Positions 11,661 through 29,331 of a stretch of DNA of 64,000 nucleotides are shown one piece after another. The translations under genes and the position numbers were made by a program. Origin of the DNA: a virus. The stretch lies in the IMG/VR virus record IMGVR_UViG_3300030060_005695, one strand, 5' to 3'. Every line of letters begins with the position of its first letter. Within the stretch, counting starts at the first letter, position 1. Under the pieces are notes generated by a model. That model was given only the letters and a program-made list of their open reading frames with translations, made no database searches and was not told where the DNA came from.

Positions 11661-11661
11661 T

Positions 11662-13500
11662 ATGGCAGAGAAAAAAATAGCATATACAGAAAGAGATTTT
11701 CTAGGAGTAAGAAATGAGTTATTAAGATTAACTAATACTTACTATCCAGATTTAATTAAAAACGCGAATGACGCTTCTATATATTCTGTATTTTTAGACC
11801 TTAATGCTGCGGTAGCAGACAATTTAAACTTCCAGATAGACAGGACATTCCAAGAGACAGTTTTACAATACGCACAAGAAAGAAGTTCTTTATATAATAT
11901 AGCAAAAACTTATGGGTTAAAAATACCTGGTAATAGACCTTCTGTTACGGTTGTAGATTTGTCTATCATAGTACCAGTATTAGGTGATAAAGAAGATTTT
12001 AAATATTTGGGTAGATTAAGAGCTGGTTCACAATTTAGAGGTGCGGGTCAAGTATTTGAATTGGTTGAAGATTGTGATTTTTCATCTCAATATAATGCAG
12101 AAGGAGTACCCAACCAAACTAAAATACCTAATAAAGACGCAAATGGGATAACCCAAAATTACACAATAGTGAAGAGAGAGGTTGTTGTTAATGGGATAAC
12201 TAAAGTATTTAAAAAAGAAATTACAGATGCGGACTCCAAACCGTTCTATAAAATATTTTTACCTGAAAAAAATGTAATTGGTGTAACATCCGTAATACAA
12301 AAACCAGGACTAGGATACCAAACTATACCAGCAAATAGTGAATTCCTATCAACCACTTCTAATAAGTGGTATGAAGTTGAAGCATTAGCACAAAATGAAG
12401 TTTTTGTGTTAGACCCATCTATACCTGCTGATATGCCAGGAATTAAAGTTGGTAAATATATAACAGTACCACAAAGATTTATAACAGAATTTACACCGGA
12501 AGGATTTTTTCATTTAACATTTGGTAGTGGGAACCAAACCTCCCAAGACCTATTAGATAATTTTGCATCTAAAGGTGTTAAATTAAATATGTCTAAATTT
12601 TTAAATAATATAGCTTTAGGTAATTCAGTTAAAGCAAATACCACACTTTTCATACAATATAGAGTTGGGGGTGGTAAAGCCGCAAATATTGGAGCTGGTG
12701 CAGTTAATACGGTGGGCACTATAGATTTTGTGGTCGGTGGTCCCAGTCAACAAATAAACCAAACTGTCGTAAGTAGTTTAGCTGTGACTAATACTACCGC
12801 TGCTATCGGGGGAGCAAACCAAATGACACCAGATGAAATAAGAAATTATATATCTTTTAATTTTGCAGCTCAAAATAGAGGGGTGACAATTAATGACTAT
12901 GTTTCTAAATTAAGAACTATGCCGGCTACATTTGGTGCACCCGCAAAAGTTGGTGTGACAGAAATAGAAAATAAAGTTAACGTTAATGTACTTTCATACA
13001 CCCCAGATGGTAAACTAACTTCATTAGTTAGTGATACTCTTAAAAATAATATAGCAAATTATTTATCTAATTATAGGATGTTAAACGACTATGTTGTTGT
13101 GGGTGCCGCTAGAGTGATAGATTTAGCTTTTTCTATTGACCTAATTTTAGAAAAAGATGCAAATGAAGGTGAAATAGTGACTAATGTTATAACCAAAATA
13201 AGTGATTATTTTGCTGTTGACAAAATGGAATTAGGTGAAGACTTAGCTTTAGGTAACTTAAGAGCTTTTATTATGAACCAACCGGGAGTCTTAAATCTAA
13301 CTGATATTTTAGTTTTTAATAAAGTAGGGGGTAATTATTCACAATCAGTAACAACACAACCTTATGTTAACGCGACTACAAAACAAATAGGGTTAATTGA
13401 CGATACTATCTACGCTCAACCAAACGAAGTACTTCAAATACGTTTTCCAAACCAAGACATCGCAATTAGATACAAGAAACCATCTAAACCAGTACTTTAA
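11662..13500 (+). CDS. Baseplate wedge subunit, T4 gp6 / baseplate-J-like
   Basis: YTERDF, LQYAQERSSLYNIAKTYG, LTFGSG, YRVGGGKAAN, AIGGA, AQNRGVTINDY; follows gp25. Confidence 0.88.
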   Translation: MAEKKIAYTERDFLGVRNELLRLTNTYYPDLIKNANDASIYSVFLDLNAAVADNLNFQIDRTFQETVLQYAQERSSLYNIAKTYGLKIPGNRPSVTVVDLSIIVPVLGDKEDFKYLGRLRAGSQFRGAGQVFELVEDCDFSSQYNAEGVPNQTKIPNKDANGITQNYTIVKREVVVNGITKVFKKEITDADSKPFYKIFLPEKNVIGVTSVIQKPGLGYQTIPANSEFLSTTSNKWYEVEALAQNEVFVLDPSIPADMPGIKVGKYITVPQRFITEFTPEGFFHLTFGSGNQTSQDLLDNFASKGVKLNMSKFLNNIALGNSVKANTTLFIQYRVGGGKAANIGAGAVNTVGTIDFVVGGPSQQINQTVVSSLAVTNTTAAIGGANQMTPDEIRNYISFNFAAQNRGVTINDYVSKLRTMPATFGAPAKVGVTEIENKVNVNVLSYTPDGKLTSLVSDTLKNNIANYLSNYRMLNDYVVVGAARVIDLAFSIDLILEKDANEGEIVTNVITKISDYFAVDKMELGEDLALGNLRAFIMNQPGVLNLTDILVFNKVGGNYSQSVTTQPYVNATTKQIGLIDDTIYAQPNEVLQIRFPNQDIAIRYKKPSKPVL

Positions 13501-13613
13501 TAATCTTTACTATAACCGCATGTTAAGTACTTTTAGTTTTAATGGTGGAACTATTTATGTTATAAGCACCATAAATGCAATAAATTATTTTAGGGGGTGT
13601 AATAATATAAACT

Positions 13614-16600
13614 ATGGGTAAATCATTTAGAGTAAGGACAGATGTTAGAGTTGGTGGAGCAAAAGACAAGAATGTAACTTTTGAACTCAGCCAAAACTTT
13701 GACTTACTTGAAATTCTTAGTCTTTCATTAACACAACAAGATGTTTATACACGTATGTGTGCAGATTTTGGTGTAGTTGTTGGTAGGGTTATAACTAACG
13801 GAGGATTCGGAATACCAAACGCCAAAGTATCTATATTTATCCCACTAACCGAAGAAGATGAACAAAACCTCGTAATAAAAGAACTTTATCCCTTCAAAGA
13901 ACCCTTTGACGTAACTGAAGATGGTAAAAGATATAATCTATTAAGTAGCGAACCAAACTTTGACTGTCATGTTACAGTTGGTAGTTTTCCTACATTAAAT
14001 GATGTTTTAAACAAACAAGAGGTAAAACACGTGTACGATAAGTACTATAAGTATACGGTTAAAACTAATGAGTCAGGTGACTTTATGATATATGGTGTTC
14101 CAGTAGGGGACCAAACTATCATCATGGATGTTGATGTAAGTGACATAGGTTGTTTTTCTTTATTACCAGAAGATTTTAAGATAAAAGGATTTCCAGACTC
14201 TGATTTTGATGGAGCAAAATTTAGAGATGATATAGTTATAGACAGCCTACCTCAAGTACTAAGTCAACAAAAATCTATAGATGTTAGACCTTTTTGGGGT
14301 GACGAAGAATTTTGTAGAGCGGCAATAACTAGGGTTGATTTTGATTTAGGACAAACAGGGTTTAAATTAGAACCTAATGCTGTGTTTATGGGTAGTACCG
14401 CATCTGATACTGACAAAGATTCTGTAAATAAAAACTGTAGACCAAAAGCAGCAATGGGTGAACTATGTAGTCTAATATCCAAACCAGGGATAATAGATTG
14501 TATAAGGTATACCCCATTTTTCCAAGATGACCCAAATGCTTACCCCGCTTATACAGCAGGAGGGTGGGGTGCACCTCTAGGTGGAGAAGTTCCAATACTT
14601 GAAAGATTTTACTTACCTAATGGGGGTAGGGTAATTGACGATACAGGTTCTTTCTTAGTCCACGTACCAATGAATTTAGATTATATGACAACTAATGAAT
14701 TTGGGGAAATGGTACTTTCAGATGACCCAAGTATAGGGGTACCTACTAGAGCGAGATGTAGATTTAGAATAAGACCTGAACAAGCAACGGGAGGAGCAAG
14801 ACAAAGAAGAATAGCTAGTTACCTAGTACCTAACATCAGGGAATTTTATGACCCATGGGCAGGTGACGATAATGGGGATTGGCCAGGTATAGACCCTTCT
14901 TCTTACGCTTTTTCTGTAAATTATAGTGACTACAATCCTTGGGCACAAAGAAATTTAATGCCTGCAGCAAAAGATGTTTTTTATGACATGACATTTAACA
15001 GGGTATATACTTTTTCACAATTTCATGACCATATTAAACATGGTGGTAGAAGAGAATTTGTGGGTATAAAAAATATATTACCTGAAGCGGACCAACAATG
15101 TGCTACCACAGCAATGTTTTTCCCAATAAATAGTGCGGTAAGAGCTCCTAGTTTAATGGTATTCCTTTGGATGTTCCTTATAGATTTTCTAGGGATGATT
15201 TACATGTTCTTAACAATACTAATATCAACACTAGCTGTATTCTTAAGCTTAATACTGGGGGTTATATTATTTATTATGTGGTTATTATGTTGGCTTTGGT
15301 GTGCAATATATTGTATTCGTATCACTCTTTGGGGTTTTACAATATTAGATATGGCTTCCCTAATTGGACCTAATGGTGCACCACCAGAAGAATGTGGACA
15401 AATTTGTATTAGTGGTCCTAATTGTTTTGGTTGTGCTACTGATTGTAGGTATTTTGGTTTAAGAATGGGGTTTGTATTGTTTACTTTAAGACAAACAAAA
15501 TATCCTGAGTGTGAAAAATGTTTATGTAGGACTATGGGTGATATGGCAGTAACAGATTCTCTTATATACCTAGCCTCACAATGGCCTTGCCCTGGTTCAT
15601 TACCATGGGGAGCATCCGGTAATACCACGTCAACTTCCTCATCAACATGTGTACCACAATGTCCACCAGGTAATGGTGCTACTGGTGATGACTTTGGTGG
15701 TAAATGGGAACACGATTGTTGTTCCGAAAGTGACGAAACAAGAGTTTGTTGTCCAGACCATTATGGTTTTAGGTCGGATGATGTCAATGACCCCCAAACA
15801 TCAGGTACTACAAATGATGGGGTTGCGGGTGGTGGCTGCTATGTAAAATTAATATGTTTTAGCCCAGCTTGTATCGGAGCAAACTACAATCTTAAAGTTT
15901 TAATAGAATGGACTAGAAGGGAAAAAATAGCACAAGCATTGTGTAATGGTGTTATGAATTATTTTTGGGAAAATAGTTGGGTAAGTGGATTCTTATACCA
16001 ATTCCAGTTTAGAGCTAAAGTAGAGTATGACCCAGCAAATGATACTTATGCCACAAATTCAACGTGGTGTAAAAAATTAACCTACCTACACCCAACAGAA
16101 CATGCTTTCTATTATAGGTCAACCCCTTTCCAAGTTAGTGGTATCGGTGTAAATCAAGGTAATTATATTGGTGATACTGACGGAGTTTATAAACCATGGT
16201 ATCAGTTCTGGGGTGGTAACAACACAAGTGATATGCATGGTAAAGGTGATATGGATAGACACATACTATTCCCAACGACAATGGTAGATATGGGTTCCAG
16301 AAATCAATGTATACAACAAATCTGTATGGACCCTAATTATGTTAATGAATGTTCAGTTACTGACCAGATAGGTAGTACAACATTCCAAGACATTACAGAA
16401 CTTGTTTCTGACACCTATAACCTTAAAATGCAACAACCACTAGCTTCAATGTCTACTTTCTTCCCACGTCCAGAATACGAAATTGGTGGTGATGTCGCAC
16501 AAGCACTTATGCAAAACTGTATGTTAGGTGTGGTAGGGTATGAAGCTAATGTAGGTACAACAGCTTGTGAATGTGACTACCAACTTAATATATCTACAAC

Positions 16601-17270
16601 ACCAACAAATGTGGCACCAAATAGTGGATTAACATACCCATCACCAAATTTTGTTGGAGGTACATATGTACCAAATGCACTTAATGTAAATGACATAAAT
16701 GACCCAGGAAACTTTACACACACTCTTTTATGGGAACCACTATTATTTACTGCTTCCACTCAAGTGATTATGAATGGTCAAGATTTGATAGATTGCTTAA
16801 CAATGGAATTATCCGCATCCAGTCAAAATGTTCCATTTTATCCATGGCATTTGGATAATGTTAGTTCAACCGCTACCGTAGGTGGTCAACCATACGGAGG
16901 TTGGGGTACAGTTTGGAATGATTGGTTAGGTACTACTGGAGAATATAGATATGCATTTGGTATACCAGGACCAGCAATGTCTATACTACCAGCAATATCA
17001 TTTGATGAAGAAGACGGTTCGGTACTACATCCAGCACCGGCATCTGCACCATATGTGAGTGACGGGAACTTCCAACACTATATGGGTAACCCACCATTTA
17101 CATTTGCCGGTAATAATTATCCTGTCATGAATGGTACTATTCCAGACAGTAGGTCTTATGTGTTCTCTCAACCACTATTTTATTATTTTGGATTAAGACC
17201 AGGTGCTACATCATTTAACACCTTTGTGAGAAAATACGTTGATGAAGAATTAGCTGATACAGTAATATAA
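13614..17270 (+). CDS. Large putative virion/baseplate-associated protein with carboxypeptidase-regulatory-like N-domain, long hydrophobic segment and Cys-rich regions
   Basis: GVVVGRV....GFGIPNAKVSIF, TVKTNESGDFMIYGVPVG; hydrophobic run about aa 514-585; C-terminal YYFGLRPG; position in baseplate operon. Confidence 0.6.
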   Translation: MGKSFRVRTDVRVGGAKDKNVTFELSQNFDLLEILSLSLTQQDVYTRMCADFGVVVGRVITNGGFGIPNAKVSIFIPLTEEDEQNLVIKELYPFKEPFDVTEDGKRYNLLSSEPNFDCHVTVGSFPTLNDVLNKQEVKHVYDKYYKYTVKTNESGDFMIYGVPVGDQTIIMDVDVSDIGCFSLLPEDFKIKGFPDSDFDGAKFRDDIVIDSLPQVLSQQKSIDVRPFWGDEEFCRAAITRVDFDLGQTGFKLEPNAVFMGSTASDTDKDSVNKNCRPKAAMGELCSLISKPGIIDCIRYTPFFQDDPNAYPAYTAGGWGAPLGGEVPILERFYLPNGGRVIDDTGSFLVHVPMNLDYMTTNEFGEMVLSDDPSIGVPTRARCRFRIRPEQATGGARQRRIASYLVPNIREFYDPWAGDDNGDWPGIDPSSYAFSVNYSDYNPWAQRNLMPAAKDVFYDMTFNRVYTFSQFHDHIKHGGRREFVGIKNILPEADQQCATTAMFFPINSAVRAPSLMVFLWMFLIDFLGMIYMFLTILISTLAVFLSLILGVILFIMWLLCWLWCAIYCIRITLWGFTILDMASLIGPNGAPPEECGQICISGPNCFGCATDCRYFGLRMGFVLFTLRQTKYPECEKCLCRTMGDMAVTDSLIYLASQWPCPGSLPWGASGNTTSTSSSTCVPQCPPGNGATGDDFGGKWEHDCCSESDETRVCCPDHYGFRSDDVNDPQTSGTTNDGVAGGGCYVKLICFSPACIGANYNLKVLIEWTRREKIAQALCNGVMNYFWENSWVSGFLYQFQFRAKVEYDPANDTYATNSTWCKKLTYLHPTEHAFYYRSTPFQVSGIGVNQGNYIGDTDGVYKPWYQFWGGNNTSDMHGKGDMDRHILFPTTMVDMGSRNQCIQQICMDPNYVNECSVTDQIGSTTFQDITELVSDTYNLKMQQPLASMSTFFPRPEYEIGGDVAQALMQNCMLGVVGYEANVGTTACECDYQLNISTTPTNVAPNSGLTYPSPNFVGGTYVPNALNVNDINDPGNFTHTLLWEPLLFTASTQVIMNGQDLIDCLTMELSASSQNVPFYPWHLDNVSSTATVGGQPYGGWGTVWNDWLGTTGEYRYAFGIPGPAMSILPAISFDEEDGSVLHPAPASAPYVSDGNFQHYMGNPPFTFAGNNYPVMNGTIPDSRSYVFSQPLFYYFGLRPGATSFNTFVRKYVDEELADTVI

Positions 17271-19054
17271 TGAGTAACGAAAAAAACATAAGAATTGTAA
17301 GAGGTGAAGCTAGATTTGCTGGTTCACCAAATAACGACGTGCAGTTACAACCATTTTTAGAATCTACACAAAAACAAATACATGAGGGGGATAGAAATTT
17401 AGTTTTGGACCTTAGAGACCAATTTGATTTTGAAAGGGCTTATTCAACACAATATAGGTTATATGGAAAAATAGATATACTTTACAATAATATAATTAGT
17501 GGGAGTACTCAGGATACTACATTTATGAGGTCAATGTACTTTATTCCAGATTTTTTGGGTTGTCCACAAACAGCAGGTGTACCACCAACTACCTGCTCGG
17601 GTTTACCACCAGCTAGTACATTTACAATAATACCACCTAAAAGATATGGTATTTTTGCAAGTCAAGCGGGTTGGGAACCACTTTTAGCACATCAAGATAA
17701 TTGGGTACAATATATATCTTATGTTAACGATGCAGACTCCAATCAAAGAATGATGTACTATACCGACTATTCTACGAATTCTGGTATGCAGTTTGTATCG
17801 GGAGATGGTATACCTTTTATACCTATAACAACCAATACAGATGGTAAGGAAGTTTTACAAATAATTACACCAGTAAGACACGGTGTATTACCAGGAGAAT
17901 ATATAGAAATACAGTCAGGAGCTACTACAATGGGTAGTGCAAATCTAATGACTAATGTTACTATTCCAGTAACCTTCCCAAGTCCAGCAGGTCCACAAAC
18001 TATATTCAAAGTAGATTATTTGGGTAACGGTTTGGAAAATTCAGAGGACTACGTGATGAATATTACAACAGTTGGTCTAGACGTAACATCAATACCAGCA
18101 AATCCAGTGGGTACACTTAAAAGAGTAATTAATCCAGAAAATATGTTGGAAACAAAATCTGAATATTATTGCCAAATACATAAGTTAATAACAAACCCAA
18201 ATGACCTTACAGTAGATAAAACAGGGTTTGAAAGAGGAATATATAATAAAAGAGGTAGGGTATTTCCTAGAAAAAGAACACCAGATTACATACAAAAATC
18301 TGTACTAAACCAAGCCTATGATTCATTTTTATGGAATTGTAATTATAATATTAATAGTGATGACTACTATGACCAATTTAATAGACCATTAACTGAATTT
18401 TATTTAACAATTTTAACTACAAATAGAAATCTCATATGGGATTGGAATCCGGGAATCAATTCTCCAGCAGGTTATGGTTGGGGTTGGAATTTTAAAAAGA
18501 ATGGTGTTGTGGACCCATTTGTGGATAATGGGACATCACCAGTTAATTTAACACAAACTGGAAATCAGGGAGTTAATCCACTACCACTTAGTGGTTCTAC
18601 ATTTAGGGGTGCTTTTGCTGAGTATAATCCATTTGAATTAAAAGAAAGGGTAATTTCTGAAATAGGACATTCACTAAAATTTAATAGGAATACTATGTAT
18701 AAAGTAGGGGGTACACCAGGTTATGATTTTGTAGAATCTATATTTAAATACAACCCACACCACAAAATTCCTATAAGAAAATTCTCAAATTATATAAGTT
18801 ATAATGATAGTCTGTTTACATCACCCCAGTATGCTGTTTATTCTTTATCAGAGGAAACATTTAGGTGGAGAGAAATTTTACCGGTAGAAGCTTATGAGGA
18901 TGGGGATAATGGTGTGAGTTATCCTTATTTAAATGATGCACACTACCCATACCATAATTTAGAATTTAAAATAGAGGCTGTAGGACCAGCATTAATCCCA
19001 CTAACCTCAGGAACAATAAGTATATTAACTGAATACACAGATGGCTGTCAATAG
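17270..19054 (+). CDS. Putative structural protein
   Basis: 594 aa, coupled to neighbours in the baseplate operon. Confidence 0.55.
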   Translation: MSNEKNIRIVRGEARFAGSPNNDVQLQPFLESTQKQIHEGDRNLVLDLRDQFDFERAYSTQYRLYGKIDILYNNIISGSTQDTTFMRSMYFIPDFLGCPQTAGVPPTTCSGLPPASTFTIIPPKRYGIFASQAGWEPLLAHQDNWVQYISYVNDADSNQRMMYYTDYSTNSGMQFVSGDGIPFIPITTNTDGKEVLQIITPVRHGVLPGEYIEIQSGATTMGSANLMTNVTIPVTFPSPAGPQTIFKVDYLGNGLENSEDYVMNITTVGLDVTSIPANPVGTLKRVINPENMLETKSEYYCQIHKLITNPNDLTVDKTGFERGIYNKRGRVFPRKRTPDYIQKSVLNQAYDSFLWNCNYNINSDDYYDQFNRPLTEFYLTILTTNRNLIWDWNPGINSPAGYGWGWNFKKNGVVDPFVDNGTSPVNLTQTGNQGVNPLPLSGSTFRGAFAEYNPFELKERVISEIGHSLKFNRNTMYKVGGTPGYDFVESIFKYNPHHKIPIRKFSNYISYNDSLFTSPQYAVYSLSEETFRWREILPVEAYEDGDNGVSYPYLNDAHYPYHNLEFKIEAVGPALIPLTSGTISILTEYTDGCQ

Positions 19055-19985
19055 ATTAAACATAAAAGCTTCTACTAAAGATAAGTCTATAACTATACCT
19101 ATAGGTCAAACTTTTGATGAAATAGGTAATGAACAATTAGTTAGAACTTGGGAAGAAGTCGAGTTACAAGATAATATAAATGTTATACAAGATTATGAAA
19201 CAACTAGATATGCTTATAAAAATAATATTAGTGGTAATACCATATCTTATGAATTTAATTTTTGGGATTATGCAAATCAAGAATACCCAATACCCACACC
19301 AAACTTTAACGTTTTAGGTTTTACAGATAAAGAATTAGCAAAACCTAAAAAAGCATTTACTAGAAGTTTTTTTAAGTTTGATTTTTATGATTCACCATTA
19401 AGAAAAGAACAAAAAATAATGTTCACCAATATAATGTCTTTAAATAATTGTATAAAGGTAGAAACAGCAGTAGACCCATTACAAGACCCCACAGAATATT
19501 ACTCACAAATAGCAGACAACATTCCAATACCAATGTATGGGGTGTATGTTCCTATTGCTTTATTGGGTCCCCTACATGGTAGAAGTGAAAATTATTATAT
19601 ACAATGGTTAAAAGATAGGGAACTAACAGAAATTAATGAGTTTTATATGAGTTGTAAATTTTTTAACGCAAAAACTGGTAAAGTAACCAATATGATAAAC
19701 CAACAACCAACTCTAAGTGAAATTGTAAACGGTGAAATATTAAGTTACCCAGAATGGTTCTATTATAAAGTTAAATTATATATAAATCCCAGTAATGCAT
19801 CTACAACCGACCCAAAATATCGTTATGTGGTCACTGAATTTAATGAAGCAATTATGGCTATGGGTGGTGGTGGTGGAGTAAAAGGGACTGGTTTACCAGG
19901 TCAAACTCCAAGTGGAGCAGTACCAGGTACGTTACAAGTACCCAGTGGAACACCAATAAAATTTTTTGAATATGTAAATCCTTAA
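19041..19985 (+). CDS. Putative structural protein
   Basis: 314 aa; FTRSFFKFDFYDSP, FYMSCKFFNAKTG, PIKFFEYVNP. Confidence 0.55.
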   Translation: MAVNRLNIKASTKDKSITIPIGQTFDEIGNEQLVRTWEEVELQDNINVIQDYETTRYAYKNNISGNTISYEFNFWDYANQEYPIPTPNFNVLGFTDKELAKPKKAFTRSFFKFDFYDSPLRKEQKIMFTNIMSLNNCIKVETAVDPLQDPTEYYSQIADNIPIPMYGVYVPIALLGPLHGRSENYYIQWLKDRELTEINEFYMSCKFFNAKTGKVTNMINQQPTLSEIVNGEILSYPEWFYYKVKLYINPSNASTTDPKYRYVVTEFNEAIMAMGGGGGVKGTGLPGQTPSGAVPGTLQVPSGTPIKFFEYVNP

Positions 19986-19988
19986 TAT

Positions 19989-22900
19989 ATGGAAGTATAC
20001 AAATATAGAATAAAAAGAAATAACCCTAGTGTTTATTTTACAGTACCTTGTACAGGTGGAACCAATTTCTACCCTATTAATACAAGTCCTAACTGTTCAG
20101 GATTAACAATGTACAACTCTACATTTAGTCAAGTACAGGACGCTTTACAAGGTGACATGAATAACTTCCCAACAGAACTAACCGGATGTTCGTCAACAAA
20201 TCCATGTATCCTGTTAAATGATACTACTACTATGCCAGTAATGGGTGCACCACCACCATATGGTAATGTACCAACATTAAATCAACCATTTTGTTTAGAT
20301 GTGGAGTCTCATCCTTATGTTATATTTGCTGGGTTAAATTTATACCAATCTGGGGTAATGACATTTACTGGTGAAAGTTACGACGATTTAATAAGTGTGT
20401 TTTCTTTAACAAATTCTACACTCTCACAACCATTAAATTCCCAAACTAACGCACACCTAACACCAAACACAATATCTTGTTTTTGTCCACCACCTGTTTT
20501 TAATGACTTACATCAAGTTCCAGTTTTTTTAGACCAAGATTTTAATGATATAGGGCATTACGATATTTGGGACGGAAATTTGGGACAAAAAGATATTTTT
20601 TCTAATTTTGTAGTTACCGCTACTACAGCTATGGGTAACCAGATACAAATTTATAATACCACAGATTTTGGTTACTATAAGAGTTATCAGAATTCTCCTT
20701 ACACTATAAATTGGGGTGACTGTCCTTGTGATTGTCCAGTTCCGCCATGTACCAATGCATTTGGTGACCCTTGTTGTGAAACTTTACAATTCCCTAACTT
20801 AACAAATCCTGTACCACACACTTATGCAGGTGTAGGTACACGAAGAATTACCATAACGCATGAAAATGAGTGGGGACCAACATCAGTATCTCAGGCTATA
20901 ACAGTACCCTTTATGCCTTATAATACATTACAAGCTTCTGGTGGTATACCACCTAGTAATGTACCTGTAGTAGGTCCTAGTGGACCAATAGGTACTAATA
21001 CATATTTTGGAGCTTATCCTTTTTCACCTCTAGATTCTGGTACTGACATCTTACAATATAGTGGTATGTCCCCTATATTTGGTGGTGGTAATAACAGTAA
21101 CTGTTTTGATGTTACAGGTAACACACAAAGTTTATTAGGAGCATTTCAATCGTACACATCATTACAAACCGGTAACTTACCTCCCGGATATCAAATAAAT
21201 GTAGATGTACCCTTAATGGGTGAAGTAATAAACCCAATAACCAATCAAATAGAACAGGGAGTTATGGGTAGGATTACTGTGGAAAATACACAATATACCG
21301 CTTACACAATTAGTATAGGTACTAACACACCAATAACATTTTATGATTTTAGTAATGGTGTTACTTTATACGAAGCTACAAGTTGTGGTTTAGATGCTTT
21401 TGCTTTTGGTGCTTTTGATTGTGTAAAATGTGAAATAGGTGATTGCACTTACTGTGAAACAAAAGATGAATATATAGATAGGGTAACAAACCTACCACAA
21501 CCAATAAGTTTTAACCCAATGATTAATACTAATTGGGGTGAATGGTCCGCAACAACAAATTATGTTAAAGGAGATATAGTATTCGACTCAACCTGGGGTG
21601 AGTGTTGTTGTTATATGGCAGTACAAGATATAAATCAGACAGGTGGTACTATAGACCCTTGGGCTGGTATAAAACCAACAGACTTAGTACAAGGAGTTTG
21701 GTGGAATAATGGACAACCTACGGAACATATTTGGGAGGCTTGTACCCCAGAATGTGAAGCATGTCCAGAGTTTACATCCATACCTTGTTATGACCCAACC
21801 AACACTTGGAACGCTTATCCAACTATCTCACCAGTAGGTCCAGCTGGAGTATATAGTAATGGTAATGTATATACTACAGGACAATTTACCTTAGGTCAAT
21901 GGGGTAATTGTTATAGAGCTTTGTCGGGTGGTACTTTACCACCACCATCTGGGTTAACCAACAATCAATACTGGGACTATATTGGATGTTCTAGTTGGGT
22001 GTGTCCACCAGTATCAGCTTTAACAGCATCTAGTCTTTCATGTCAACTAGTACCTGGTACGGGGTCAACTAGTACGGGACCTTGTACAAGTATAGGTTTT
22101 GCCACATTTGAAGATTGTATGGATACTTTTTACTTAGGTAATTGTTGTGAAGATAGATATATTTGTATCGACCAATATTCCTGTCAAGGATGTTCAGCTA
22201 TGACATCAGCACACCCACTATACAATGACCCTAGTGCATTAGACCCAACACAAGGTCCAGTTTTTGATAATGAACTTGATTGTTTAGCGTGGTGTGAACC
22301 ACCAGCGTATTCTTGTGTTACTAGTACCCCAGCAAGTTCTAATAATTGTTGTGGTTTACTTTCATGTACTGATGACCTTATAAATGGTACAACATTTTAC
22401 ATAGATAATGTGTATCCTGTAATGCAAACTTTACCACCTACACCAGCACCTTTTTTAAACTTTATAGACTATGCGGCATTTACCTTTGAATTATTTTTTG
22501 ACCCTTATAATATAAATGATTGTAACGCTGGATTTACAAACTCAGCAGGAACCTATACAGGTTGTTGTGATTATACTATGTGGGTTTATAATTGTGAAGA
22601 AGGATGTGTACCGGTATTTGTTGGTACAGGTTATACAACTGAAGCTGACTGTTACGCTGCTAACCCACAATGGTTAGGTGTAGGTAACACCCCTTGTGGA
22701 TACAAGTGTGACCCACTTTGTGACCCCTGTCAACCTTGTTATACATTAAATTGTGGTTACCCATATACACCACAAGGATTACAAGACTGTGAAATGGTAT
22801 GTTCTTGTGCGACAGAATGTTATGTTTGTGACTGTTTAAATGTTATAAACGGTTCAAACGTACCATGTTACCCATATCAAGACCCAGTTACAAATGCTCT

Positions 22901-25900
22901 AGATTGTCCTTACTGGCCAGTATCTAATACAGGTACTGACCCTTGGGTTCCAGCAGCGTGGACAAACGTACCAACCTTCCTCTCCGCACAACAATGTCAA
23001 AGTGCTTGTACATGTCCTGGTGGATATGATTGTTTTGTTTATGATGATACCAATCCACCCGCACAAATAGGACAACAAGTTGGTGGGTGTATGTATTATG
23101 CTAGTCTATACTTAATGACACAAGTTGGTGTTACTTGGTCTCCAGGTTCACCAACAGACCCAGCTGGTAATCCTACAGGTTATACTTCTTTTGAAGAATG
23201 TTGTAATGCAACAGAATGTTGTAGGGCGGTATGTGAGGATGACCCACTACAAGCTGGATTCATGGGTTACACATCTTTTACAACTACTGGACCTGCACTA
23301 CAAGGTGGTGGAGGTGGACAAACCCCATGTTATTGGATATCACAAACTGATTTAGATGATACAACTGGTCCTGGTTTCGTTAACTGTTGTTCTCCAGCTT
23401 ACGTAAATACAATGAATGGACTAACTGGTATTGTGCAGTGTTTCGCGGACAATCCAGGTTTACCTTATTGTGATATGGTAGATTGTGTTAACTCATTATG
23501 TCCAGACCCACTAAGTACAACAGGTATGACTTGTTGTGCACCACTAGAAGAAACTTGTAATTGTGCATGTGAAGATTGGTTAACTGTAAATGGAATACCA
23601 ATTACCACTGGATTTACTTGGATGGGACCATGGAGTAGTAGTATTAACACTTATAATATATATGAAACGGTAAGTTACGGTGACGCAAATACAGCTGAAT
23701 GTTGTTGGATATGTATGTGTCCGATTGATACAACTGGTTTACCACCAGGAGCAGGAGGTGCTTATGATTGTAACTCTAGTCCACCAGATGACGGGCCTTA
23801 CCCTGACGGAACACCAAATTGTTGGCAAACATGTGAAAGATTACCATCTTTTGACCCATCTACACCAACACCAGTTATTGGGGACCCTTGTGGTCCTTGT
23901 GAAGGACCTACTTCAGCACAAACGTATCAATGTACAACTTCTGGTTGTGTAACTTCTAATTGTGTGTTTAACCCACCAGCTGCCATGAACATCTCTATAT
24001 GGCAAACACAAAATAATTGTTATACCGCGTCTACTTGTGGTACACCATTAATTGGTGTTTCCAATGACCAATGTAGAGCTGATTGTTATTGTGCAGACCC
24101 TGGACCACCAACAGGAGGACCAGCAGAAATTTCAAACTGCACAGTTTTACAAGATTATTTAAATGATATATATTCACCAGGAACAGGTGATTTAGGGATT
24201 TATTTTAATGGGTATTCACCATTCCCATTTACTTATCCACCTGTACAACCAGGTATAGTTTTCCAGGTTACAAGTTCATATTTTTGGCCTTACGATTCTT
24301 TAGATACATGTCAAACACAATTGTCCACAGGATTATTTGATTGTTGTACTGGTTCTACAACTGGCATAACCACTTGGGAATGTGACCATAGTTGTAACTG
24401 TCCAACTGTAAATGGTAATCCTTGTGTGGGGGGTGTAGGTTGTTATCCAGTTTATGGTACCGGAGGTACATTCTCTAGTTTAAGTGGGTGTCAAGAATGG
24501 TGTACCTGGGAGTGTAATACTCAAGGTGCACAAACTTGTCAATTCATACCAATGTCTTTAGCGGCAGTTACTTATCCTTCAGCTGCGGCTTGTGAATTGG
24601 CAAATACCGATTGTTTATGTCAAAACCAAGTTGAAGAATGGTGGTGTGACCATGCGGGTGCGGATGCCGGACTTTACAATACCCCAGGGTCTCAACCATG
24701 TCAACCTAGTTCATATTTCGCATCACAATCATCATCATATCAATCACAAGCTTATGGTCAAGGAGCTGGTGGACCTTCAGACCCAAACAATAACTATAAT
24801 TGGGCAGTAGCTTTAGGTAATTTACCTGTAGGTCAGGGATTCCCATCACAAGCACAATGTCAAGAATTTTGTAGATTTTGTTGTGATTGTGCACCTCCAG
24901 GTACTGGTTTCTGTGATTTATGTGGTGACCCAGCGGTTGTAGCATGTTCATGGGGTGACCAATTCTGTAGTGGTGGAACTGCATCTTGTGGGACAGGATT
25001 ACCAAGTTCATTATCACCAGGTGATTGTGGACAACAACAACAAACAATAACTGGTACTAAAACTTGTTTTGAACCACAAACAGAATATTGTTGTCACGCA
25101 ATTGATGGATGTATATCTTATATAGGTGCAGCACCAACAGGAAGTGATGGTAATCCATGTGTATCTTTCTATGGTACTAATGCTGCAGCATGTACTAACG
25201 AATGTAATTTTGTTTGTGGGGACTGTGTACAACCAACACCACAATGTCAATGTACTTTTGTACTTGCACCAATTTCACCTTCATGTGCACCTTATCCATT
25301 TTCTAATATGGCTGATTGTGATATCTACGTTCAAGGATTAACTTTATTAGGTGATGATGGTACTTGTTGTGAATGTTATGAATGTACTACAAATAGTCCA
25401 ATAACTTATCAAATGTGGGACGTAGGTACTGCTAGTTGGGTACTTGGTTCTACACCAGTTAATATGATTACTGGAGCTCCAGCGTGGGTTTCAGGACAAG
25501 CGTATAATCCAGGTGATGTTGTGACATTTAGTTTTGATAATACTAGATGTTGTTATGTTTGTGTTTGGGAATATACACCAGATTGGACAATACCACCTTA
25601 TTTCTATTATCAAGCATACATTAATGATTTAAGTACAAATACACCTGTTTGGCCAGGAGGTGGAACTGGAAGTTTAATGTGGGTACCGTGTGACCCTACA
25701 TGTGTGCCAGGTGTTATACAAAACACTTATGATTGTATACCGGGTGTTAGTACTGATAGTTGTTCTAGCCTAACAAAAATTACACCAACAACCACACTAT
25801 TAGACCAACATGATGTACTACAAATGATAGGAAATCCTAGTGGAGTACCTTACTTACAAACTACTAACATATATAATATTAAATTTCCTTATGGGGGATT

Positions 25901-28697
25901 CCCATTTAGCCCAACTAATCCATGTTTAGACAATGGATTACCAGTAGTTACTCCAGGTGGACCAATAAGTATACATATCAGTGCTCAAATGACTCTAGGA
26001 ATACCTCAAACTTATAACACATGGAGTTCCATGATTACTAGTTTAGCAGGTGCTGGTGTAACATCACCAACTGGTACACTATTGAGTTTGTCAAGTAGTT
26101 TTGATGATGTGTGTTTAGGGATAAATCTTGTATGGGGTTCTAAAACTAGAGACAAATGTATGACTATAACACTAGACCCATGTGAGTGTAGACAAAGTCC
26201 ATGTACTTGTGTTATGATTACTGGTCCTACAGGAGCTTTTAATAATCTACCCGATTGTCAAGCTACTTTAAATAATGACCCTTGTTGCGGTAGTTGGAAA
26301 TGTGACCCAAAAATTTGTGACTGTGTATTCATTCCAAATGACATAACAGGATTTAGTTCTCAAACAGAGTGTTACAACTCTCAAAATTGTTGTAAGGTAA
26401 GGTATGATGAGTATGAGTGTAGACAAATTCCAGTTATAGGTCCTGTAGGTGCACATAATTTTAAATGTGAATGTGTTGTTGTACCAGCAGGGATGGGTAG
26501 TTATACCGGACCAAACGCTTTATTTGATTGTGAAAATGACCCAACTACATGTTGTTCAGGTAACACAATGCCAGATAGATGGAAATGCACACCTGATTGT
26601 AATTGTGTTCTAGGTGGGCCTTTTGACCAATATGCAACTTTACACGATTGTCAGACAGCTGTAAACCATAATTGTTGTTATACTGGAGTAACTAAAGAAT
26701 GGGAATGTATAGACTTCGGTACACCAACAGGGTGTAAATGTGTACAAACAGCTTCTCCTGGTGGTGGATACGCAAGTCAAGCAGATTGTGAAGCTCAAGT
26801 TAATGAGTGTTGTTATACAGGAAAAACAAGATGGGACTGTGTTGTGGGTAATAATGGTTTATGTAAATGTGTAGCCAATCCTCTGTTTGGTACATATTCT
26901 TCCCTATCTGATTGTCAAAACGGAATACCAATATCAAATTGTTGTGAAATACAATCAGATGACTGTGCTAAAGAGTGTCCACCGTCTTCTTTTATAACAC
27001 CTACTTACATCAAACATAATGGTACATATAGTATAGGTTTTACACAAACTCTTCCACTAGCCTCAACAAATATTGTGGGTCTTTGGTTTGCAGCAACCAT
27101 ATATAATGCATTTGATATAGTCCAAGACCCATATGATGATTGTTGTTATGTCTTAGTTTGTGATAGTTGTCATTTTACTGGTAGTGATATTATGAATTAT
27201 TCACCTAGTCAAATCTACCAAAACCACTTATTAGGATTATTTTATAATGGTACAACAACACCAGCAACAACCCAAGAACAAAATGCTCAAAATAGAGGAC
27301 CAATATGGTGGCCTTGTGACCCACTATGTCCAACAACACCACCAGATATAGGTTACGATTGTGTTAATTGTCCTGGTACGTGTAATTGTGTTCAAAATAA
27401 TACAGGTACAGCTCAATACCAAGGACCAAACGCTTTATCACTATGTGTAGCAGATTGTAAATCAGGTTGTGAAGATTGTGCACAAACCTTATCTGGTTAT
27501 TTATCAGGACCTATAGATTATGAAGGTATATGGTACTCCACATTCAACCCACACTATGTAGAAAATGATTGTGTGACAGACCCAACTGACGGTTGTTGTT
27601 ATTGTTGTGTTAGAGCTTTTACCGGACCAGACCCACATGATGACGACCATGCAATTACAAGGAATGATGGTACTATATCTCACTCAGGTCCAGGAGGTTC
27701 AGGTCCAGGAGGTTCAGGTCCAGGAAATTCAGGACCTACACCATCAAAACCAATCTGTAAATCCCAACATCAACCATCATTACATGTAGGTGTAAATATA
27801 GGTGGGGGAATGTGGATGGGTTGTAAAATCACAACTGACGGAGGTCCTTGCAACTCAACTACGGGGACAACAGTAGATTGTGATAATTGTGACACTTACA
27901 TGGCTACTAACTGGGGAGCAACTTTACCTTTACAGTGGAAAACCGTAGGACATCAACATTTTACAAATAACCAGTGTGTCGTAGACCCAACTGACGGTTG
28001 TTGTTATTGTTGTATGGAATCATCAGACGTAGATGATTTTGGTGAGGCGTGGGCATCTGACCCTCATTCTCAATCTCAAGCTTGTAGTATATACGATATG
28101 AATGGTGATGGAATATTAGAATATTATGGAATGTATTCTACATTTACCGGAAAATGGACTGGTTGGGTTAGTTGTTCATCTACAGGGGTATTCCCATGTA
28201 ATAACGGTGGTACTCTAAAATACGATTGTGTACATAGACCACTTTTAGGTAACCCAAGTAATTATGACTGCATACCAACACAAGGTGGTGCATATAGTAG
28301 TTTACAAGCATGTCAAAATGCACCTTGTCCACCACCAGACCAACCATGTGAAGAGTGTTGTGGAAAACTTAAAAAAGATGGTAGTTGGAGTTACCAAACC
28401 CTAAATACCTCATCTGTTCCTTGTGATTGTGAGTTTTGGTTGGGTATTGGTTGGACTTCACAATCACCATCCAAGTGTTGCGTACCACCATCGTGGGCAT
28501 GTCCTCTGGGACAAGTTTGGTCACAAGCAGATTGTAGTTGTGTACCAATAGTTATTGGACCTGGAGGACCTATCGATGATTGGGTGACCGAAGAACCTTG
28601 TATACAAACTGAAAGTTGTGCTAAGGGGTATTACTGGGATTGGAATGAATGTAAATGTATGCCTTCTGTGAGTGATGGTCCTACAGAGTTAAGTTAA
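19989..28697 (+). CDS. Giant cysteine-rich modular virion protein (PKD-like N-region, CBM5/12-like aromatic modules, many small Cys repeats)
   Basis: 2902-aa uninterrupted ORF in the tail operon. YTINWGD...HTY PKD-like signature, W-x4-5-Y-xx-GD.V modules, recurrent (Y/F)x(S/T)xxxCxxxC units. Confidence 0.8.
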   Translation: MEVYKYRIKRNNPSVYFTVPCTGGTNFYPINTSPNCSGLTMYNSTFSQVQDALQGDMNNFPTELTGCSSTNPCILLNDTTTMPVMGAPPPYGNVPTLNQPFCLDVESHPYVIFAGLNLYQSGVMTFTGESYDDLISVFSLTNSTLSQPLNSQTNAHLTPNTISCFCPPPVFNDLHQVPVFLDQDFNDIGHYDIWDGNLGQKDIFSNFVVTATTAMGNQIQIYNTTDFGYYKSYQNSPYTINWGDCPCDCPVPPCTNAFGDPCCETLQFPNLTNPVPHTYAGVGTRRITITHENEWGPTSVSQAITVPFMPYNTLQASGGIPPSNVPVVGPSGPIGTNTYFGAYPFSPLDSGTDILQYSGMSPIFGGGNNSNCFDVTGNTQSLLGAFQSYTSLQTGNLPPGYQINVDVPLMGEVINPITNQIEQGVMGRITVENTQYTAYTISIGTNTPITFYDFSNGVTLYEATSCGLDAFAFGAFDCVKCEIGDCTYCETKDEYIDRVTNLPQPISFNPMINTNWGEWSATTNYVKGDIVFDSTWGECCCYMAVQDINQTGGTIDPWAGIKPTDLVQGVWWNNGQPTEHIWEACTPECEACPEFTSIPCYDPTNTWNAYPTISPVGPAGVYSNGNVYTTGQFTLGQWGNCYRALSGGTLPPPSGLTNNQYWDYIGCSSWVCPPVSALTASSLSCQLVPGTGSTSTGPCTSIGFATFEDCMDTFYLGNCCEDRYICIDQYSCQGCSAMTSAHPLYNDPSALDPTQGPVFDNELDCLAWCEPPAYSCVTSTPASSNNCCGLLSCTDDLINGTTFYIDNVYPVMQTLPPTPAPFLNFIDYAAFTFELFFDPYNINDCNAGFTNSAGTYTGCCDYTMWVYNCEEGCVPVFVGTGYTTEADCYAANPQWLGVGNTPCGYKCDPLCDPCQPCYTLNCGYPYTPQGLQDCEMVCSCATECYVCDCLNVINGSNVPCYPYQDPVTNALDCPYWPVSNTGTDPWVPAAWTNVPTFLSAQQCQSACTCPGGYDCFVYDDTNPPAQIGQQVGGCMYYASLYLMTQVGVTWSPGSPTDPAGNPTGYTSFEECCNATECCRAVCEDDPLQAGFMGYTSFTTTGPALQGGGGGQTPCYWISQTDLDDTTGPGFVNCCSPAYVNTMNGLTGIVQCFADNPGLPYCDMVDCVNSLCPDPLSTTGMTCCAPLEETCNCACEDWLTVNGIPITTGFTWMGPWSSSINTYNIYETVSYGDANTAECCWICMCPIDTTGLPPGAGGAYDCNSSPPDDGPYPDGTPNCWQTCERLPSFDPSTPTPVIGDPCGPCEGPTSAQTYQCTTSGCVTSNCVFNPPAAMNISIWQTQNNCYTASTCGTPLIGVSNDQCRADCYCADPGPPTGGPAEISNCTVLQDYLNDIYSPGTGDLGIYFNGYSPFPFTYPPVQPGIVFQVTSSYFWPYDSLDTCQTQLSTGLFDCCTGSTTGITTWECDHSCNCPTVNGNPCVGGVGCYPVYGTGGTFSSLSGCQEWCTWECNTQGAQTCQFIPMSLAAVTYPSAAACELANTDCLCQNQVEEWWCDHAGADAGLYNTPGSQPCQPSSYFASQSSSYQSQAYGQGAGGPSDPNNNYNWAVALGNLPVGQGFPSQAQCQEFCRFCCDCAPPGTGFCDLCGDPAVVACSWGDQFCSGGTASCGTGLPSSLSPGDCGQQQQTITGTKTCFEPQTEYCCHAIDGCISYIGAAPTGSDGNPCVSFYGTNAAACTNECNFVCGDCVQPTPQCQCTFVLAPISPSCAPYPFSNMADCDIYVQGLTLLGDDGTCCECYECTTNSPITYQMWDVGTASWVLGSTPVNMITGAPAWVSGQAYNPGDVVTFSFDNTRCCYVCVWEYTPDWTIPPYFYYQAYINDLSTNTPVWPGGGTGSLMWVPCDPTCVPGVIQNTYDCIPGVSTDSCSSLTKITPTTTLLDQHDVLQMIGNPSGVPYLQTTNIYNIKFPYGGFPFSPTNPCLDNGLPVVTPGGPISIHISAQMTLGIPQTYNTWSSMITSLAGAGVTSPTGTLLSLSSSFDDVCLGINLVWGSKTRDKCMTITLDPCECRQSPCTCVMITGPTGAFNNLPDCQATLNNDPCCGSWKCDPKICDCVFIPNDITGFSSQTECYNSQNCCKVRYDEYECRQIPVIGPVGAHNFKCECVVVPAGMGSYTGPNALFDCENDPTTCCSGNTMPDRWKCTPDCNCVLGGPFDQYATLHDCQTAVNHNCCYTGVTKEWECIDFGTPTGCKCVQTASPGGGYASQADCEAQVNECCYTGKTRWDCVVGNNGLCKCVANPLFGTYSSLSDCQNGIPISNCCEIQSDDCAKECPPSSFITPTYIKHNGTYSIGFTQTLPLASTNIVGLWFAATIYNAFDIVQDPYDDCCYVLVCDSCHFTGSDIMNYSPSQIYQNHLLGLFYNGTTTPATTQEQNAQNRGPIWWPCDPLCPTTPPDIGYDCVNCPGTCNCVQNNTGTAQYQGPNALSLCVADCKSGCEDCAQTLSGYLSGPIDYEGIWYSTFNPHYVENDCVTDPTDGCCYCCVRAFTGPDPHDDDHAITRNDGTISHSGPGGSGPGGSGPGNSGPTPSKPICKSQHQPSLHVGVNIGGGMWMGCKITTDGGPCNSTTGTTVDCDNCDTYMATNWGATLPLQWKTVGHQHFTNNQCVVDPTDGCCYCCMESSDVDDFGEAWASDPHSQSQACSIYDMNGDGILEYYGMYSTFTGKWTGWVSCSSTGVFPCNNGGTLKYDCVHRPLLGNPSNYDCIPTQGGAYSSLQACQNAPCPPPDQPCEECCGKLKKDGSWSYQTLNTSSVPCDCEFWLGIGWTSQSPSKCCVPPSWACPLGQVWSQADCSCVPIVIGPGGPIDDWVTEEPCIQTESCAKGYYWDWNECKCMPSVSDGPTELS
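27578..28013 (+). repeat. 31-nt perfect direct repeat (27578-27608 and 27983-28013) encoding DPTDGCCYCC
   Basis: AGACCCAACTGACGGTTGTTGTTATTGTTGT occurs twice. Confidence 0.9.
27684..27737 (+). repeat. 15-bp tandem repeat encoding an SGPGG linker (about 3.5 copies)
   Basis: TCAGGTCCAGGAGGT x2, TCAGGTCCAGGAAAT, TCAGGACCT. Confidence 0.9.
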
Positions 28698-28698
28698 T

Positions 28699-29331
28699 AT
28701 GAGTATAAGGAGAGAAATAGAATTTGGAAGATTTTTTAAATTTGAAGTAGGGCCTATATCAGTAAATAAAAAAATATATAGACCAACGCTAAGAAGATTT
28801 GAAAAGTGGTTAAACATTGTGGAAAAAAAATCCTATTTTAACCAATTTGATGTGTTGTTAACAGGTTCTTTTCCTAATTATATTAATGGTAACATACATT
28901 GGAGTAGTTGGGACATAGACATTATTTTAATAGATGACGGTAATAATAAATTAGAATTAATTAGAGATACTTTAGTAGATTTATCTAGGGTAGCACTAGA
29001 AGAATGTGATTTTTATATAGACGTATACTACCAAAATAGAGAAAATGTAGAATTAAATAAAATTTGTTATAGGGGAGGTATAAAAGATTGTGAACCTTAC
29101 AGCTTTGAAAAAGTAGGTCTAGCTTACGCTCCACATGTTAAAAGAAATGGTATGATAGTTTCTAATTGGAATATAGAAGAAGAGGTTATTGAAGGTCTTT
29201 GGGTTACAAAATTACAATTTCCATCGGTAAAACAAATAAAGAGAATAAATAACGGATTTAAATACGACGATGAAATTTACCTAAGAGACTATAAAAAATA
29301 TTTTCCAGCAACAGAATTAGTAGGGAAATAA
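28699..29331 (+). CDS. Pol-beta superfamily nucleotidyltransferase-like protein
   Basis: hGS motif LLTGSF, DxD motif WDIDIIL, third acidic strand FYIDVYY. Confidence 0.65.
   Translation: MSIRREIEFGRFFKFEVGPISVNKKIYRPTLRRFEKWLNIVEKKSYFNQFDVLLTGSFPNYINGNIHWSSWDIDIILIDDGNNKLELIRDTLVDLSRVALEECDFYIDVYYQNRENVELNKICYRGGIKDCEPYSFEKVGLAYAPHVKRNGMIVSNWNIEEEVIEGLWVTKLQFPSVKQIKRINNGFKYDDEIYLRDYKKYFPATELVGK

Follow-up and report, generated by a model that had tools for sequence, protein, structure and literature searches.

A 2902-residue cysteine-rich protein in the baseplate module of an uncultured phage: a probable disulfide-stabilised glycan adhesin

Introduction

The IMG/VR virus record IMGVR_UViG_3300030060_005695, of which a stretch of 64,000 nucleotides (nt) is considered here (the window, meaning the whole of the DNA analysed), encodes a protein of 2902 amino acid residues (aa) with 247 Cys, which we read, with a probability of about 0.6, as a baseplate-anchored, flexible, disulfide-stabilised glycan adhesin. 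Tailed phages build their particles in a reducing cytoplasm, from proteins that as a rule contain little Cys; to our knowledge, the disulfides known in phages are a handful of inter-subunit staples. A baseplate fibre or adhesin is a known kind of phage protein, and what is uncatalogued in the databases searched, as far as sequence comparison goes, is the architecture of this one together with both of its Cys-braced domain types. We infer its virion location, disulfide chemistry, extended shape and glycan binding, with gene position and domain types as the basis for fibre shape and adhesion, and we propose as its source an uncultured marine jumbo myophage.

A cysteine-rich protein and its family

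The gene is a single uninterrupted open reading frame (ORF) at 19989..28697 (+), just as an earlier reading made from the letters alone (the sequence-only reading) had delimited it. Its product has a mass of 311 kDa, an isoelectric point of ~4.05 and a net charge of ~-202, and is rich in Thr (10.1%), Gly (9.6%) and Pro (9.0%), with Lys and Arg together at merely 2.1% and His at 1.0%. Cys makes up 8.51% of the whole, 16 residues lying in aa 1-480 and 231 (9.54%) in aa 481-2902, close to the tenth or more that had been estimated by eye for the part beyond the N-terminal region; the 200 residues of aa 2101-2300, for instance, include 27 Cys. Outside this gene, the window has 42 other ORFs, which together contain 214 Cys in 17,315 aa (1.24%). 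The N-terminal region itself had been called ordinary, which is not quite so, its Cys being nearly invariant across the family. Neither a signal peptide, whose absence had been noted before, nor a transmembrane segment was found in the protein, the maximum Kyte-Doolittle 19-residue mean being 1.18. The sole tandem repeat in the DNA of the gene is a 15-nt Gly/Pro/Ser linker (27684..27733), and this lack of any other repeat indicates that the modularity is ancient and not an assembly artefact; since the tandem-repeat search revealed no recent duplication, repeat collapse or expansion is not an issue either. A scan for promoters and terminators gave fewer matches than shuffles and was uninformative.

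A word-seeded HMMER search over 5.8 billion proteins returned 49 full-length homologues, 1650-3000 aa long and 98-30% identical, in assemblies of JGI, ENA, Logan and TARA, and every relative has a Cys content of 6.2-9.1%. Their contigs measure up to 298 kb, with one cluster member on a contig of 424 kb, and the genome size is estimated at ~320 kb, a related 61-kb fragment being rated 19% complete by CheckV. Seven loci in IMG/VR are collinear with the protein over aa 1-2891, and independent assemblies yield collinear, Cys-rich proteins at 98, 78, 72 and down to 30% identity, which refutes a chimeric assembly, the artefact that the sequence-only reading had thought of. The same reading had supposed the protein undescribed, and it belongs indeed to no catalogued phage family in Pfam, PHROG, NCBIfam, PDB or the GenBank phages: tblastn of P0001 (the 2902-aa protein), P0069 and P0077 against 50,697 GenBank phage records gave no match; a profile of the N-terminal domain found no relative in 185,579 prokaryotic species genomes; PHROGs v4 holds no family for the same three proteins at E <=0.1; NCBIfam has no match for the protein; Pfam, searched with its whole length, returned nothing except one sub-threshold CBM_5_12 match (see below); and phmmer against PDB found nothing for the N-terminal region (cut-off E up to 5) or for the 1218-aa product of a neighbouring gene.

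Pairwise turnover of the cysteines

In a 50-sequence alignment of the family, mean conservation is 0.74 for Cys, 0.46 for Trp and 0.21-0.42 for other residues, and Cys reaches 0.93-0.99 over most of aa 1-1900. When the alignment is cut into 13 arbitrary segments, the Cys counts per segment step by two (3/5/7/9, 14/16/20, 12/14/16, 13/15/17, 6/8/10/12, 5/7/9, 12/14/16, 11/13/15), and the rare odd steps are offset in the adjacent segment, as a boundary effect. The Cys total in aa 1-1800 ranges from 112 to 150 and is even in 42 of the 49 proteins, or in 22 of 27 if one protein is taken per 70%-identity cluster (one-sided binomial ~8e-4), the exceptions being the shortest and worst-aligned members. 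Substitutions of Cys are likewise paired at nearby columns (699/720, 917/922, 1133/1161, 1244/1278, 1508/1526). Compared with shuffles, CxxC spacing occurs as often as expected (z 0.0) and CxxxC, CC and CxC are mildly enriched. The profile of zinc-ribbon or metallothionein-type sites, with CxxC pairs, His co-ligands and turnover in fours, does not fit a protein with z 0.0, 1.0% His and steps of two. Because the Cys turn over pairwise, CxxC is not enriched, His is scarce and the mini-domains are predicted to be regular, sequence and models together favour disulfide pairs over Cys4 metal sites. Stabilisation by either disulfides or metal had been suggested at the outset; the paired turnover speaks for the former half of that suggestion, and the CxxC and His figures speak against the latter.

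Domain anatomy

The conserved N-terminal region (aa 1-480; 19989..21428, +), proposed to be the baseplate anchor, has a very conserved stretch of ~30 residues at its start and a 'QDFNDIGHY' motif. It is common to proteins of 750-1260 aa that occupy the equivalent genomic position in more distant phages, and BFVD has a 364-aa protein from an uncultured Caudovirales phage, named 'PKD domain-containing protein', that matches 340 of its columns (E 5.6e-14). An AlphaFold2 (AF2) model of aa 1-480, built on a 42-sequence alignment, comprises a confident alpha/beta domain at ~aa 22-165, with a predicted local distance difference test (pLDDT) score of 85-92, then a beta-sandwich at aa 201-309 and more beta structure to aa 465. 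The sandwich (20589..20915, +) is predicted to be an immunoglobulin (Ig)-like domain of PKD/FN3 type: VIA-align gives it Z 8.0 and a root-mean-square deviation (rmsd) of 1.8 over 69 residues with 7kv5 (SGBP-B) and Z 7.9 with PrtV PKD1, Foldseek lists PKD matches at probability 1.0 and target-normalised TM-scores of 0.5-0.68, and the fold is accompanied by the motif 'INWGDC...HTY...RRITIT...WG', with the Pfam model itself (PKD: PF00801 / PF18911) giving no score on P0001. With both AF2 models, Foldseek found nothing in PDB at E <=0.001.

Beyond this region two kinds of small Cys-braced domain can be told apart. The clearest of the first kind form a tandem array of six units, each of 35-50 aa and six Cys, at aa 2064-2320 (26178..26948, +), with the consensus W-x-C ... 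C-x-C-V ... G-x-Y-x-S-x3-C ... C-C and the spacing C-x(3-14)-C-x-C-x(13-17)-C-x(6-9)-C-C; a seventh clear unit lies at aa 2744-2792 (28218..28364, +). The sequence-only reading had counted dozens, which is too many: the profile gives these seven copies, further unit-like stretches amount to ~10-20 weak or partial matches (a loose regular expression for the helix motif has 26), and most of aa 480-1900 is Cys-rich, diverged and non-repetitive. Other parts of the protein, and short relatives too, contain a form with four Cys, Y-x-C-x3-GG-x-C ... G-x-Y-x-S-L-x2-C-x3-C. Searched with phmmer against 1.84 billion representatives, the six-unit array found 5 matches, all of the same family, and since it returns its own family alone, the six-Cys unit is not a widespread domain at single-sequence sensitivity.

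In the AF2 models, each six-Cys unit consists of a beta-hairpin, a short strand and a helix (pLDDT 60-83). The structures that come closest are Kunitz domains (boophilin, bikunin, bungarotoxin B, HAI-1, TFPI), with Z 2.0-3.1 and an rmsd of 1.4-2.2 over 32-39 residues, low Z values obtained with a model of pLDDT ~65; the weak Foldseek list for the array model consists of tandem Kunitz, EGF and follistatin structures. As modelled, the units resemble Kunitz, EGF and follistatin/Kazal modules in being hairpins of ~40 aa with a C-terminal helix and six Cys, strung in tandem like beads, and some of them end in F/Y-x-S-x3-C-x3-C, as Kunitz domains do. Kunitz domains, however, have the Cys spacing C-x8-C-x15-C-x7-C-x12-C-x3-C, which differs from that of the units; Pfam Kunitz (PF00014) gave no match at E up to 1, and the unit profiles A4 and A5, run against PDB at E up to 10, drew chance Ig/Fab matches and no Kunitz chain. 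Membership of the Kunitz/BPTI family was therefore rejected, the resemblance being one of topology alone.

The second kind of domain is aromatic, and the seven or so copies seen in the sequence-only reading were all recovered. They lie at aa 513-589 (21525..21755, +), 618-672 (21840..22004, +), 1208-1245 (23610..23723, +; a shorter copy), 1827-1905 (25467..25703, +), 2359-2447 (27063..27329, +), 2507-2612 (27507..27824, +; with an internal Gly/Pro/Ser linker) and 2640-2729 (27906..28175, +). As consensus they have W-x5-Y-x2-(G)D-x-V-x6-CCY-x-C, and in most cases a W-x-C much farther on closes the module. They share the motif W-x(5-6)-Y-x2-GD-x-V ... Y-x-C with the carbohydrate-binding modules (CBM) of type CBM5/12, or chitin-binding type 3, found in bacterial chitinases and phage tail proteins; unlike these, they contain an additional conserved cluster, CC(Y)xC, and have long stretches inserted ahead of the closing W-x-C.

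Several comparisons point the same way. The fourth module has a Pfam CBM_5_12 (PF02839) match (aa 1832-1847, E 0.03) that stays below the gathering threshold (14.8 against 26.2 bits), and the homologue P0075 has a comparable sub-threshold one. Against PDB, the seven-module profile reaches a CBM5/12-type dioxygenase tail (E 0.056) and the chitin-binding domain of Streptomyces griseus ChiC (E 0.2). For the region of the fifth module (aa 2320-2448), the top VIA-align matches are binding domains of chitinases and a deacetylase together with baseplate or fibre chains of phages 7-7-1 and Pa193 and of an Anabaena contractile injection system (CIS), all at Z 3.3-3.7. The fold matches, with weak scores, the binding domains of a Moritella chitinase, a Vibrio cholerae deacetylase, SmChiB and S. 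griseus ChiC, the values being those of a tiny domain (4hmc, Z 3.6, rmsd 1.8 over 46 residues; 4ny2 and 4tx8, Z 3.3; 2d49, Z 2.4), and Foldseek superposes 26 residues on the CBM5/12 fold at rmsd 0.8. In BFVD, many phage proteins annotated 'chitin-binding', 'ChiA1-BD' or 'CBM5/12' match. These separate lines from sequences and models agree, each of them weak, as expected of a 45-residue domain, and suggest that the aromatic modules are CBM5/12-like.

Relatives differ mostly towards the C-terminus. Residues 1-1900 are collinear across all of them, and the distal third (aa ~1900-2902; 25686..28694, +) is variable, with an alignment occupancy of 0.34-0.64 and the lowest identity. Identity drops from N to C in every pairwise comparison (with P0011, from ~0.75 to ~0.29). 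The number of modules also varies among homologues, from 0 to 7 for clear six-Cys units and from 1 to 7 for aromatic modules. No coiled-coil, beta-helix or collagen trimer motif is visible in the protein. If ~50 domains each span 2.5-3 nm, the chain might reach ~130-160 nm.

Position in the baseplate module

Upstream of the baseplate block lie genes for gp32-like and UvsX-like proteins, an FKBP, a 5'-3' exonuclease, DnaB and a class II ribonucleotide reductase (RNR). The block is headed by genes for a gp25-like protein (155 aa; PF04965, E 1.3e-11) and a gp6/Baseplate_J-like wedge protein (612 aa; phrog_6, E 8e-19) at 11193..13500 (+), which are followed by three conserved unknown genes of 1218, 594 and 314 aa (13614..19985, +) and then by the gene for the 2902-aa protein. 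From gp25 through this gene the reading frames overlap or abut, and a 210-aa gene (28699..29331, +), kept in close relatives and replaced in distant ones, starts 2 nt past its stop. The assignment to a baseplate/tail operon made from the letters alone was thus sound, and a place downstream of gp25-, gp6- and gp7-sized genes is that of T4-type peripheral baseplate proteins.

The conserved order runs RNR, DUF5522, gp25, gp6, genes of ~1200, ~590 and ~315 aa, the Cys-rich gene and, further on, genes of ~305, ~1000, ~1180 and ~1300 aa, and it recurs unchanged in three contigs, one of 298 kb, a TARA contig of 279 kb and a metagenome contig from NCBI, whose orthologues have 2990, 873 and 1016 aa, respectively. 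Those of 873 and 1016 aa share the N-terminal ~480 residues with the 2902-aa protein at 28-33% identity, and in distant orthologues the first residues are nearly identical and the 'QDFNDIGHY' motif is retained. The fixed position and the shared N-terminus, combined with such different lengths, imply that the conserved entity is an N-terminal module bearing very different C-terminal extensions. To speak of an appendage system, as the sequence-only reading did, was an overstatement, given that conservation concerns a single gene, fixed in its place in the baseplate block, with a length of 873 to ~3000 aa.

The nearest annotated deposited phage is Flavobacterium phage immuto (27% identity in gp6), in which the stretch after gp25 and the wedge gene runs into tail fibre and tail spike genes. 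Of the ORFs of >=250 aa in the corresponding modules of immuto, of Microcystis phage Mel-JY01 and of the huge phage LR756508, all but one have 0-2.2% Cys, which argues that the cysteine habit is specific to the clade of the 2902-aa protein.

Within this clade the habit extends to other genes. The 1218-aa protein (13614..17270, +), in the 'gp7 position', has a Cys-rich insert of its own (24 Cys in aa 559-777); its gene is conserved in distant relatives at 1180-1220 aa and 2.7-2.9% Cys, and no Pfam, PHROG or PDB sequence match was found for it. It also contains a strongly hydrophobic segment rich in Trp and Cys at ~aa 541-580. A 1321-aa protein of the structural module (33709..37674, +) is Cys-rich over its C-terminal ~300 aa, with one clean four-Cys unit, FYTCKGGLC...GIYSSLDECIARC (nt 37339..37419), then a linker rich in Lys, Glu and Pro and a terminal Cys cluster; the occurrence of this unit here suggests that the Cys unit is mobile as a module and serves in more than one protein of the virion module. 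In the NCBI metagenome contig MDSZ01072492.1, the gene right after the 1016-aa orthologue encodes a second Cys-rich protein (13045..16245, +; 1066 aa, 61 Cys, 5.7%), a sign that Cys-rich baseplate proteins come in sets in this phage group.

Proposed function and alternative explanations

In the mechanism that we favour, the conserved N-terminal ~480 aa, the PKD-like Ig domain included, would dock the protein to the baseplate, and the remaining ~2400 aa would make up a flexible chain of ~50 small domains with two or three disulfides each, up to ~120 per chain. The seven CBM5/12-like modules along the chain may bind polysaccharide, be it a host surface glycan or a chitin-like or other particle glycan, and the fast-evolving, module-shuffled distal third would determine specificity. 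The disulfides would harden a thin chain against proteases and shear in oxic seawater, and could form by air oxidation after lysis or via a putative oxidase. A role in adhesion and host range is suggested by the combination of an N-terminal docking region, a fixed baseplate position, a length range of 873-3000 aa, shuffled distal modules and multiple carbohydrate-binding-type modules. The long beads-on-a-string fibre of the sequence-only reading survives as a chain of small Cys-stabilised domains, with CBM-type modules interspersed, encoded in the baseplate module.

Redox and maturation enzymes that might make so many bonds were sought. Among the window ORFs of >=100 aa, the window being ~20% of the genome, no Erv/ALR oxidase of the poxvirus or giant-virus type (PF04777), DsbA/B, VKOR or radical-SAM protein was found, and in five related IMG/VR fragments, 9-34% complete, no Erv/ALR, DsbA, VKOR, thioredoxin or radical-SAM protein, the Erv control having rung in no genome. 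Oxidation after lysis in oxic seawater is assumed here as the default route. Three genes of the window deserve mention beside this question. One, at 5622..6056 (+), encodes a prolyl isomerase of FKBP type that carries an insert (E 1.9e-20), and it is plausible that such an isomerase helps to fold a protein with 9% Pro. Another, at 58669..59007 (+), encodes a 112-aa thioredoxin-fold protein with a CPSC motif, which scores far below cut-off with Thioredoxin_2 (E 0.003) and glutaredoxin-like TIGR02196 (E 0.005); it was considered as the oxidase of the fibre and set aside for the simpler reading that it is the reductant for the class II RNR. The third, at 52437..52769 (+), encodes a candidate redox helper, a DUF1360 membrane protein of 110 aa that has a CMMC motif.

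A number of points tell against a disulfide-stabilised baseplate adhesin. The reducing host cytoplasm, with no thiol oxidase found in the window or the five fragments, leaves ~120 disulfides without an explained route. The parity signal would also fit gain and loss of whole modules with even Cys numbers, and shared ancestry inflates the counts; the total of 247 Cys is odd, so that at least one of them is free or bonded between chains. The CBM5/12 and Kunitz similarities all lie below family thresholds or at Z <4, and AF2 confidence is moderate (mean pLDDT 67 and 70). The virion location is read from synteny in a family whose members are all metagenomic, and hhalign of the family profile with T4 gp9, gp10 and gp12 gave a probability of <=0.2%, that is, no similarity.

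The odd total would leave room for inter-chain bonds, and neighbouring baseplate-module proteins also have Cys-rich inserts. The protein might be no adhesin at all but part of a covalently cross-linked cage, collar or net round the baseplate, stabilising a very large tail or restraining its contraction, much as phages Milano and Pam3 cross-link baseplate or sheath by disulfides (PMC10811340, PMC9942802). A conserved N-terminus followed by a variable, module-shuffled distal third is, however, the signature of host range and not of a fixed scaffold, seven carbohydrate-binding-type modules are present, and orthologue lengths of 873-3000 aa are hard to square with a fixed architectural role, so that we regard this explanation as unlikely. 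Somewhat less probable is a metal-cluster protein, in which the Cys would bind Zn or another metal (in zinc-ribbon, Zn2Cys6 or metallothionein-like fashion) and the domains would be stabilised by it. Folding around metal is compatible with a reducing cytoplasm and with the lack of a signal peptide and of any thiol oxidase found, and units of four or six Cys could in principle form Cys4 or Zn2Cys6 sites; yet Cys counts shift by two and not by four, no His or Asp ligands replace Cys, CxxC knuckles are not enriched (z 0.0) in a protein with 1% His, and the units are predicted to have aromatic cores and a regular hairpin-plus-helix build whose sole structural look-alikes are disulfide-rich extracellular domains (Kunitz, EGF, follistatin).

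It could also be that the protein is no part of the virion and is encoded in the tail operon through linkage only, being made late and released at lysis, or acting on the host envelope or surrounding matrix as a glycan- or biofilm-binding protein or a decoy of protease-inhibitor type. The Kunitz-like topology of the units and their F/Y-x-S-x3-C-x3-C motif recall protease inhibitors. Against this, the gene keeps strictly to its place within the baseplate block, its frame overlapping with others, down to 30% identity, a docking-type N-terminal region is common to all relatives, and neither the PDB searches with unit profiles (E up to 10) nor Pfam revealed a Kunitz relationship, which makes a non-virion protein very unlikely. 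That the Cys are joined by enzyme-made thioether or other cross-links, as in a fibre 'stapled' by a radical-SAM enzyme, is hardly credible: the window ORFs and the five related fragments contain no radical-SAM gene, with the control ringing in 14 of 14 genomes, and the Cys patterns lack a regular ladder of CxxxC type.

An ambitious extension of the glycan-adhesin reading, conceivable and rather doubtful, is that the baseplates of this clade bear 'tentacles' of ~300 kDa on the plan of extracellular matrix proteins of eukaryotes, each with ~50 disulfide-knotted mini-domains and multiple chitin-type modules. These would tether virions to particles of chitin or other polysaccharide (marine snow) on which the hosts, presumed to be Bacteroidota, feed, in a manner likened to Ig-mediated adherence to mucus. 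To make them, oxidative folding would have to follow a route not yet recognised, in or at the infected cell, or else be completed after lysis for >100 disulfides.

Comparison with known systems

The gradient of conservation from N to C is the one seen in anchor-plus-tip phage fibres and baseplate adhesins, such as those of T4 gp10/gp12 type, the tail fibres of the Agrobacterium phages 7-7-1 and Milano and the baseplate fibre of Pa193. In T4, gp6 is followed by gp7-gp8-gp9-gp10-gp11-gp12, and by position and size the 314-aa gene, the gene for the 2902-aa protein and the 210-aa gene parallel gp9, gp10 and gp11. Chains 9rkv_M of 7-7-1 and 9b45_2 of Pa193 appear to share with the protein the small CBM5/12-like domain (Z 3.3-3.4), and Milano chains 8fqc_Q1/P1 are weak Foldseek matches to its model. 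Phage fibres differ from it in that it is made of disulfide-rich mini-domains at 9.5% Cys and lacks trimer motifs and a PHROG family.

Disulfides are not foreign to phage tails. The fibres of cyanophage Pam3 are disulfide-bonded to the wedge (PMC9942802), Agrobacterium phage Milano has a disulfide network of sheath and baseplate (PMC10811340), and disulfides occur in gp39, a tail tube protein of a siphovirus (PMC13576161), and these cases show that functional disulfides can exist in the tail and baseplate proteins of tailed phages despite assembly in the bacterial cytoplasm. They involve few, mostly inter-subunit bonds per protein, whereas up to ~120 presumed intradomain bonds in ~50 mini-domains would be gathered here in a single chain. 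Kunitz-type extracellular modules differ in turn in that the 2902-aa protein is made without a secretion signal in the bacterial cytoplasm.

In this reading, a widespread family of baseplate proteins in uncultured marine jumbo phages is built on a principle of eukaryotic secreted proteins, with about one in ten residues a conserved, pairwise-evolving Cys. Should the disulfides be real, where and how a phage folds a protein with more than 100 of them becomes a testable question. Two undescribed small domain types, the four- or six-Cys hairpin-helix unit and the Cys-braced CBM5/12 variant, would be added to the phage host-recognition repertoire, and such mini-domains could serve as compact, stable binding scaffolds. 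The CBM-like modules suggest polysaccharide binding, which bears on how large phages find particle-attached marine hosts.

Other genes of the window

Dockerin/EF-hand-like repeats for Ca binding occur twice in a 260-aa protein (43688..44470, +; Dockerin_1 E 1.6e-6, above cut-off), which has six of its 12 Cys within the last 40 residues. Similar repeats lie near the N-termini of homologues P0077 and P0075, a hint of Ca-dependent docking between virion proteins. Near the structural block, at 52806..55021 (+), a sugar aminotransferase of DegT/DnrJ/EryC1 type (E 2e-69) stands beside a family-2 glycosyltransferase, possibly a phage-encoded pair for glycan modification. The window further encodes a sigma-70 family factor with regions 1.2, 2 and 4 (59146..59943, +; E ~1e-16), an Amidase_2 protein at 61310..61864 and M23 peptidase domains in two places: the C-terminal end of an 846-aa protein (70..2610, +) and the gene at 55014..55724 (-), the sole sizeable minus-strand gene of the window.

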